DNA of 64,000 bases, taken from positions 78,233 to 142,232 of the forward strand of contig JAQBUT010000005.1 of assembly GCA_027623195.1 (NCBI GenBank), written 5' to 3'. The notes under the pieces are model-generated. The model had not been told where the DNA came from and made no database searches. It saw nothing but the letters and a program-made list of their open reading frames with translations. This DNA comes from Chloroflexota bacterium (GTDB taxonomy: Bacteria > Chloroflexota > Dehalococcoidia > Lucifugimonadales > JADFKI01). Made by a program: the position numbers and the translations under genes. Below are positions 15,668-16,465 of the stretch, one piece after another (positions within the stretch are counted from its first letter, which is position 1; every line of letters begins with the position of its first letter).

Positions 15668-16465
15668 GTGGACGCACAAGTGATCATAAACATATCTGGA
15701 AGCCCTGGGGACCAGGCCGGTTCTGTCGAATCCGAAGCACCCCTAAGCCTCGAACGTTTGGCCGCCATGGGCGGAGCCGAGGGTTCCGACGATTTTGCTG
15801 CACCCATGGAGTTAGAAAGACTGGCTGGCGCGGCGATGGGAGGAGGCGATTGGTCTGCTCCGTTGGCGCTGGAGGATTTATCTCAGATGGCCGCCAAAAT
15901 GGATGAAGGTGAAGGTACCCCGCCCGTGAAACTGGAATCTCTGGCCGCGATGGCCGATGGCCAGGAAATCGGGGACGGCCTGGCACCGCCACTAGACCTG
16001 CAGGAACTAATCGCTATGACCTCGGGAGTGGCCAATATCAGCGCGGCTGTACCCGCAGAACTATCCGAATTAGCCGCGATGGCGTCCGGCACAGCAGGTG
16101 ATGCCGAAGGAATCCCAATGGAGCTAGAGCAGCTTATCGCTATGACTTCTGGCGGAGCGTAAGCCGATACGGGAATGCCGCTGGAACTGGAGCAGCTTGC
16201 CGATATGGCTGTCGCCTACGGAGAAGACGCTGGACTGCTAGCCCACACCGAGCTTCACGAGTTGGAGGCGATGGCGGCGAACGCTGGTGAAGGCCAGATA
16301 CCCGAAGACCCTTTGCAACTGGAGGCCCTAGAGGAAATGGCTTCTTCTGAGGAGACCGATGACGGCCATGAAGATGATCAATCGCAGGGGGTCGAGGACC
16401 ACGCCAACGAAGGACTTAATCATCCGCAGTCTAGCTTTATCCTCTATTTAAGGGGTAAACGTTAG
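15668..16465 (+). CDS. Acidic tandem-repeat protein (10 x PxxLExLxAM), interrupted by in-frame TAA at 16160-16162
   Basis: GGAGG RBS before GTG 15668. ORFs 15620-16162 and 16175-16465 are in the same frame and the ~21-aa period is kept across the stop. Confidence 0.75.

Follow-up and report, generated by a model that had tools for sequence, protein, structure and literature searches.

Disordered multivalent linkers of condensates and shells, such as CsoS2 and EPYC1, carry evenly spaced short binding motifs, and multi-core RiPP precursors such as the cyanobactin precursor PatE combine repeated short conserved elements with variable segments between them and are encoded adjacent to a protease. 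Peptidases of the Immune inhibitor A or M6 type are represented by the models PF05547 and TIGR03296. A metalloprotease combined with a pentamer of B subunits is already described for EcxAB and CfxAB (in the available text of PMC11610972). The locus analysed here lies in a 64,000-nt stretch of Chloroflexota DNA (the window, by which we mean this whole stretch) and contains a ten-unit repeat gene close to a metalloprotease gene that matches both M6 models. The window copy of the protease differs from described M6 peptidases in that it is frameshifted within its zinc motif and belongs to a subfamily with a Cys-rich N-terminal stretch and a C-terminal small domain (SD), a unit of ~72 aa that forms the last ~72 residues of the protease and recurs as a free-standing ORF. 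Like EcxAB and CfxAB, the locus encodes a zinc metalloprotease and a small subunit with a predicted OB fold of the toxin-B type side by side. Unlike in these toxins, however, the SD of this kind of cluster is found both fused to the protease and free in 1-3 copies and has no sequence similarity to B subunits; the proteases are of the M6 and astacin types, with no signal peptides seen by eye; and a repeat protein and a protein of ~95 aa are extra conserved partners. In contrast to CsoS2 and EPYC1, the repeat protein is acidic, and we propose a small OB domain as its partner. The idea of an encapsulin or BMC scaffold found no support in the genome, which is 87% complete and in which the shell families PF04454 and PF00936 had 0 matches each. 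In contrast to PatE, the conserved element of the window protein is the helix or motif itself. Pfam searches identified no RiPP-modifying enzymes in the island described below or in 58 proteins encoded nearby at 8 related loci, and we consider a classical RiPP reading of the repeat protein weak. A literature search found no paper on such a cluster, which is undescribed and, as detailed below, widely transferred.

Comparison of the window by blastn with a genome of the same genus (G002) and one of the same family (G007) shows that the alignment ends at 13252 and restarts at 17118. The two flanks are about 175 and 150 bp apart in G002 and G007, respectively, and the flanking PHP and membrane/IspE genes are adjacent in both genomes, so that the intervening segment of the window is an island (Table 1). 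Its GC content is 52.7%, compared to a window mean of 55.7%, and its genes follow each other in the order M6 pseudogene, SD, repeat gene, ORF138.

Table 1. Coordinates of the island and of the features within it (positions in the window).
Feature	Position	Strand	Remarks
Island	13253..17117		3.9 kb; four + strand genes between - strand housekeeping genes (PHP protein; membrane protein/IspE)
M6 metalloprotease pseudogene, N-terminal piece	13685..14440	+	Runs to H-E-L-G of the zinc motif; PF05547, E 4.6e-13
M6 metalloprotease pseudogene, C-terminal piece	14448..15269	+	Other frame; TIGR03296 positions 176-286
SD fused to protease C-terminus	15048..15266	+	49-51% identical to the free copy; included in alignment A6
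Free-standing SD gene	15342..15569	+	75 aa; intact
Ribosome-binding-like GGAGG	15656..15660	+	7 nt 5' of GTG 15668; sequence inspection
Repeat gene, part 1	15668..16162	+	N-terminal strand (M)DAQVIINIS and repeats 1-7; ends at the private TAA
Repeat gene, part 2	16163..16465	+	Repeats 8-10, acidic stretch, tail L-R-G-K-R, stop TAG
Perfect 22-bp hairpin	16476..16524	+	Just 3' of the repeat gene stop; possible terminator without U tract
ORF138	16675..17091	+	Last island gene; no family

The M6 gene is split between two frames. Its N-terminal piece covers positions 2-175 of the TIGR03296 profile and aligns to residues 6-254 of P0008, an intact 525-aa M6 homologue, and the C-terminal piece aligns to residues 256-525, the two pieces flanking a single P0008 residue. 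The break is a one-base frameshift inside HExxH, around 14438-14441, which is present in both of the studies whose reads are compared below; an intact single-frame HExxH was not found in the window M6, and the second study has an additional nonsense change at 14628. This is the sole M6 gene in the genome. Judged from these lesions, the island protease is dead, and since the island M6 is already a pseudogene, the local copy is decaying. ORF138 had no match in Pfam, NCBIfam, PHROG or PADLOC. In a Dehalococcoidaceae MAG (L077:388-2127), an intact SD-less M6 gene is directly followed by a homologue of ORF138 with 51% identity, and neither an SD gene nor a repeat gene lies between the two.

Translation of 15620-16465, which contains one internal stop, shows ten P-x-x-L-E-x-L-x-A-M units in a single frame within 15668-16465. 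The units start at 15740, 15803, 15860, 15923, 15989, 16052, 16115, 16178, 16244 and 16310, with successive spacings of 21, 19, 21, 22, 21, 21, 21, 22 and 22 aa, and their cores are separated by Gly/Ala/Asp/Glu linkers of 9-12 aa. The TAA at 16160-16162 is in frame with the repeats and falls within an 11-aa linker. A sequence-only reading of this DNA had listed ten motif strings in one frame, 19-22 aa apart with linkers of 9-12 aa, and had placed the TAA in a linker of normal length; all ten strings and the position of the stop were found as described. The protein contains 53 Asp and Glu residues and 7 Lys and Arg residues. GTG 15668, behind the GGAGG listed in Table 1, is a plausible start of the gene, and part 2 has been annotated by a gene caller as a 96-aa product (P0002). 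We counted 9 occurrences of the relaxed pattern [PH]..L..L..M in the repeat protein, whereas 20,000 shuffles gave 0.014 on average and never more than 2; the array is thus far beyond chance. A stricter pattern had 8 matches in the six-frame translation of the 3.0-Mb genome, all 8 of them in the repeat gene locus.

At the DNA level, Tandem Repeats Finder identified no array at the repeat gene, the 30-nt repeat cores have a mean identity of 54%, and the same codon is used in 53 of the 199 codon pairs at identical non-Met residues, which indicates that the residues were kept while synonymous sites diverged. The repeat protein thus appears to have been under past selection at the protein level, in agreement with the earlier statement that the repeats are conserved as protein and diverged as DNA. 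That the array is a chance ORF or lineage-specific junk that was never functional has, we believe, a negligible probability, given the shuffle test, the retention of residues despite synonymous divergence and the occurrence of the same position and build in 28 other loci; what speaks for it is that protein libraries of 5.8 billion and 1.84 billion sequences held no sequence homologue and that no RNA run was listed among the public runs carrying the repeat-gene stretch. When modelled alone, the window repeat protein was predicted by AF2 with low confidence (pLDDT 49.5). Each core forms a short helix in this model, the most confident part of which is an N-terminal strand at residues 3-9 (pLDDT 76), which corresponds to the beta-like segment AQVIINIS noted from the sequence alone. 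The hairpin behind the gene has a dG of -44.2 kcal/mol (z -9.1; 0 of 200 shuffles were equally stable) and is unique in the genome; it is absent from the calls of the terminator scan.

To characterise the in-frame stop, we compared public runs from two studies (P1 and P2) that carry the stretch, over 3.3 kb. A P1 run is identical to the window, including the TAA at 16160. The three P2 runs are 99.4% identical to it over 3.3 kb, with 20 differing positions and one inserted base, and all three have GAA (Glu) at 16160. At 16245, P2 replaces the odd His of repeat 9 in the window with the consensus Pro, and one extra base behind 16384 gives P2 a different, Arg-rich tail of 11 aa. TAA 16160 is a private nonsense mutation of a Glu codon in the population of the window. 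The GAA codon and the consensus Pro in P2 indicate that the ancestral gene ran across all ten units, and 15668-16465 was formerly one gene of ~265 codons, consisting of a short N-terminal beta strand, ten 21-aa units, each of them an amphipathic mini-helix that begins with Pro followed by a linker, and a basic end. The two ORFs are thus a single ORF in the sister population, and the proposal of one selected protein spanning the stop is borne out by the sense codon there. Each population carries its own lesion or variant in the repeat gene. In the M6 and repeat genes together, we identified 12 non-synonymous or nonsense changes and 4 synonymous changes between P1 and P2, one of the 12 lying in the extension from ATG 15620, before the GTG start; the free SD gene has a single difference, which is synonymous. 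The count of 12 to 4 fits decay, but also a fast-evolving disordered protein.

We also considered whether the stretch consists of two distinct short genes, or whether the stop is subject to programmed read-through or recoding. ATG 16175 lies just after the TAA, and the annotator called the 96-aa product; against this, there is no good ribosome-binding site before ATG 16175, the motif and linker length are continuous across the stop, and the stop is not conserved, since 16160 is read as Glu in the sister population (GAA in all three P2 runs). We regard either version as highly improbable. The in-frame stop is itself unremarkable, being a private nonsense mutation within an island that is decaying.

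Searches for sequence homologues of the repeat protein were blank or uninformative. Among proteins of near length, 0 of 2475 candidates reached E<=0.01, and among 8000 longer proteins scored with a profile of two-unit pieces only P0002, the window's own product, was recovered. An exhaustive HMMER search of 1.84 billion representatives gave 4 matches, of which two come from the gene itself (its second ORF and a fragment of the sister allele, 35 aa long); the others are a protein of low complexity and P0005. In 41 relatives, the repeat protein was matched in its own genome only; in 401 genomes of the phylum, 8 others had matches, all with per-genome E values of 0.002-0.009 and thus no better than chance; this number includes the unpublished genome G213, which was used for no other result. 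The metagenome scan found none, Pfam, NCBIfam and PADLOC contained no match, PHROGs gave one weak match (E 7.7e-4), and the best score in the ESM Atlas (0.83) was uninformative. P0005 is a 1571-aa FG-GAP/Ig surface protein with ~22 units of the same 21-aa period as the window protein and with P-L-x-hydrophobic-x-E-hydrophobic in register with the window units (library-wide E 5e-6). It differs in that identity is 24%, its units are strand-like and rich in V, I and S, and the protein is giant, secreted and encoded in a context unrelated to the island; the similarity is probably a convergence of periodic sequences. The tandem 21-aa units of P0005 (P-T-P-L-N-F-S-E-V-V-H-V-S-D-G-T-P-G-L-V-A, residues ~820-1300) lie outside any Pfam model.

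To compare the island with other genomes by gene position rather than by the repeat sequence, we used an M6 alignment to retrieve 60 loci with related M6 proteases, which come from Gamma-, Beta- and Alphaproteobacteria, Bacteroidota, Nitrospiria, an actinobacterial MAG, cyanobacteria, a Methanothrix MAG and others. The SD was identified by HMM in 32 of the 60 loci, usually fused to the protease and present in 1-3 further copies. In 28 of these 32 loci, a free SD ORF is followed on the same strand, after 3-200 bp, by an ORF of 114-194 aa; the exceptions are L059 and L060, which are cut by contig ends, L106, which has a fused SD only, and L081. These SD-linked ORFs start with M-x(0-4)-[TVI]-I-[NK]-[IL]-[NSP], for example M-A-Q-T-I-N-I-N-I or M-x-x-E-I-T-I-K-I-P, continue with 4-8 copies of the motif (A/L/V)-P-x-P-(E/D)-(D/E)-hydrophobic-(E/D) at intervals of 16-20 aa (168 motifs in total, with 4, 5, 6, 7 and 8 motifs in 2, 8, 6, 8 and 4 proteins, respectively), and in most cases end in a basic tail of Ser, Thr, Lys and Arg. 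Four of the 28 members (L058, L064, L070 and L071) are non-acidic. An automatic rule recovered 20 of the 28 members and gave 3 likely false matches elsewhere, so that the remaining members were recognised by eye; in the 28 SD-less M6 loci, the rule-based scan identified 0 such ORFs.

In the window, a gap of 98 bp separates the free SD ORF from the repeat ORF downstream of it on the same strand. The segment (M)DAQVIINIS of the repeat ORF corresponds to the N-terminal strand of the SD-linked proteins, although the match to the strand HMM (E 0.0045) is weak on its own because that HMM was built including the window sequence. Like the others, it has evenly spaced motifs that begin with Pro and a basic C-terminus, with ten units and the end L-R-G-K-R. 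Compared to other members, its motif lacks the second Pro, and its ten units are more than in any of them. No sequence method detected homology between the window protein and the other members, and the repeat HMM and tblastn matched 0 of the 60 loci. Comparison of locus pairs shows that M6 identities of 98.5, 95, 85 and 75% are accompanied by repeat-protein identities of 75, 64, 33.5 and 25%, and that repeat units are gained or lost between strains. In two loci of Nitrosomonas marina with 98.5% identical M6 proteases, the repeat proteins differ by one whole unit (L072:3934-4437 vs. L079:3923-4360; 168 vs. 146 aa). By these comparisons the repeat proteins evolve far faster than their neighbours, and the blank homology searches are explained by this speed. 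The window gene is, by position and build, a very divergent member of a fast-evolving, undescribed family, whose clusters occur in Proteobacteria, Bacteroidota, Nitrospirota, Actinomycetota, one Methanothrix genome and the window genome. The check proposed by the sequence-only reading, a search for the motif beside M6 homologues, gave a split result: the exact motif was found beside none of them (0 of the 60 loci, and 0 of 8 M6 homologues in the same phylum), whereas an equivalent build was found in 28 of the 32 SD loci, and its suggestion that the repeat gene belongs with the neighbouring protease agrees with the recurrence of equivalent ORFs in related M6 clusters. Its interpretation is partly supported overall; the private stop, the dead protease, the island and the small OB domain as likely partner are points that it did not contain.

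Other genes recur in these clusters. An astacin protease that also ends in an SD is present in 10 loci and a YscW-like protein in 9, and 33 of the 60 loci encode, within about 1 kb of the M6 or SD genes, a conserved ~95-aa protein that starts A-A-P-N-x-S (e.g., L072:6578-6880, L063:8910-9188 and L056:10199-10504). The latter belongs to no Pfam family and is missing from the window, which has ORF138 in its place; the possibility that ORF138 is the local form of this partner was rejected (HMM E 0.1-0.2, hhalign probability 1%). In a Marinobacter locus (L064:8866-12143), the M6 gene is followed at a distance of 1 kb by an operon for a contractile injection system of the phage-sheath-like type; a link to such systems was rejected, as sheath genes occur at 1 of the 60 loci only. 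The M6 N-termini (L054-L111; 13685-13760 in the window) share a conserved, Cys-rich stretch, C-x-C-x-P-P-S-P-E-L-E-E-K-I, which resembles one copy of the repeat motif and which SD-less M6 loci also keep. It may be a pro-peptide, a latency element or a cleavage site, and we presume a likeness to a cysteine-switch pro-peptide; the repeat HMM had no match to the M6 N-termini.

For structural comparison of the SD, we aligned 71 SD sequences (alignment A6, which includes the fused copy of the window) and used this alignment for an AF2 model. The model has a pLDDT of 95.2 and a pTM of 0.82 and follows the order strand-strand-strand-helix-strand-strand. The top Foldseek matches are the B subunits of LT-IIb, cholera toxin and EcxB (TMq 0.78-0.82, E from 4.5e-4), ArtB and PltB are further best matches, and the EcxAB structures 4l63 and 4l6t are also present. 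With VIA-align, an LT-II B subunit scored highest (Z 11.0, rmsd 2.4 over 75 residues). Scores of Z 9-10 were obtained for pertussis S5, CipA, SilF and a protein-glutaminase pro-domain, whereas SSB-type OB folds scored about 7. The SD is thus confidently predicted to have an OB fold that is closest to the B subunits of AB5 toxins; since Z scores of 9-10 are also reached with other OB proteins, 'toxin-B-like' applies at the level of the fold only. The A6 profile matched no solved B subunit among PDB sequences (best E 0.6, to unrelated chains), and 0 of the 71 members matched a toxin family in Pfam; 26 of the 71 had weak matches to PF08750 (CNP1-like). In the ESM Atlas, the SD falls among unnamed clusters of 70-75 aa. 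An alignment of the SD pair retrieved P0007 and P0008 by word-index search and nothing in genome and metagenome scans, and the SD was not found in viral contigs (alignment A5). No signal peptides were seen on the proteases, the SD or the repeat proteins upon inspection by eye rather than with a predictor. That the repeat protein is a degenerate SD paralogue was rejected on the basis of negative HMM scores.

The presence of the repeat protein follows the SD and not the protease, which makes the SD its likely partner; L077 and L083-L085, M6 loci that have no SD, are without a repeat protein. We propose that the SD, both fused to proteases and free, would form oligomers like the toxin B subunits that it resembles, and that the repeat protein would be a multivalent ligand of these oligomers, with the N-terminal strand and each of the evenly spaced motifs docking on an SD, such that protease-bearing assemblies are strung together, capped or regulated. 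Of the roles suggested from the sequence alone, multivalent docking agrees best with the strict co-occurrence of repeat protein and SD, and the conserved N-terminal strand and the even motif spacing would suit docking on SD oligomers. Taken alone, however, the docking of the motifs and strand on the SD is a tentative proposal, to which we give somewhat less than even credence. Conversely, the part of the account that concerns a single ancestral gene, the private stop, the dead protease, the island and a position and build tied to the SD is, in our judgement, very probably correct, and the full statement, in which a decaying copy of one gene from an SD-linked family encoded a multivalent SD ligand, has slightly better than even chances. 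The broader picture, that the island is the decayed copy of an undescribed, horizontally spread, cytoplasmic assembly in which M6 and astacin proteases would sit on toxin-B-like rings and be organised, capped or gated by a hypervariable disordered protein with a single anchoring strand and one short motif for each subunit, is doubtful as a whole; if true, it would amount to a new AB5-like machine with a multivalent adaptor.

The neighbourhood of the proteases also invites the explanation that the repeat protein is a multi-site substrate or precursor, from which SD-tagged M6 and astacin proteases would release peptides of ~18-21 aa by cutting at or between the motifs. Its constant association with one or two metalloproteases, the even spacing with hypervariable inter-motif segments and the resemblance of the M6 N-terminal stretch C-x-C-x-P-P-S-P-E-L-E-E-K-I to one motif copy are all compatible with such processing. 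However, the SD-less M6 loci named above have the N-terminal motif and yet no repeat protein, the repeat HMM misses the M6 N-termini, no conserved modifying enzyme or exporter is encoded nearby, no signal peptide was seen by eye, and M6 is not among the metalloprotease families that the available text of PMC10885120 names for RiPPs; we consider this explanation a live but unlikely rival. Less likely still is an immunity-like role as pseudo-substrate inhibitor, in which the motifs would fill the active sites of cytoplasmic protease oligomers until release. Restraint in the cytoplasm would make sense for proteases and SDs that carry no signal peptides by eye, the motif resembles the protease's own N-terminal stretch, and rapid evolution is typical of inhibitor-target pairs. 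Nevertheless, the repeat protein co-occurs with the SD and not with the protease alone, and the window protease is dead, while the repeat gene of the sister population has no stop at 16160, though its tail is frameshifted. Compared to both of these explanations, multivalent docking on the SD remains our preferred reading.

The repeat gene led to a conserved cluster that no library searched names, composed of one or two SD-fused metalloproteases, free SD copies, the ~95-aa protein and the disordered repeat protein. Some 'orphan' genes are thus orphan only to sequence search, and here position and build reveal the relatives. If the repeat protein is a multivalent partner of the SD, the cluster would be a case of natural short-motif scaffolding in prokaryotes; it would also represent a new way to assemble proteases on B-subunit-like rings. 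The logic of the cluster, in which proteases on toxin-B-like domains are combined with a hypervariable multivalent protein, makes it worth experimental study in an intact cluster. Comparison of the SD copies by residue provides a further observation on SD and repeat protein: at position 20 (15399-15401 in the window), 64 of the 71 copies have Asn, whereas the 5 copies from L063 and L109 have Trp and both copies of the window have Val. As the repeats of just these three loci are rich in Leu instead of having acidic P-x-P motifs, there is a small hint, in favour of the SD as partner, that this SD position co-varies with the type of repeat.
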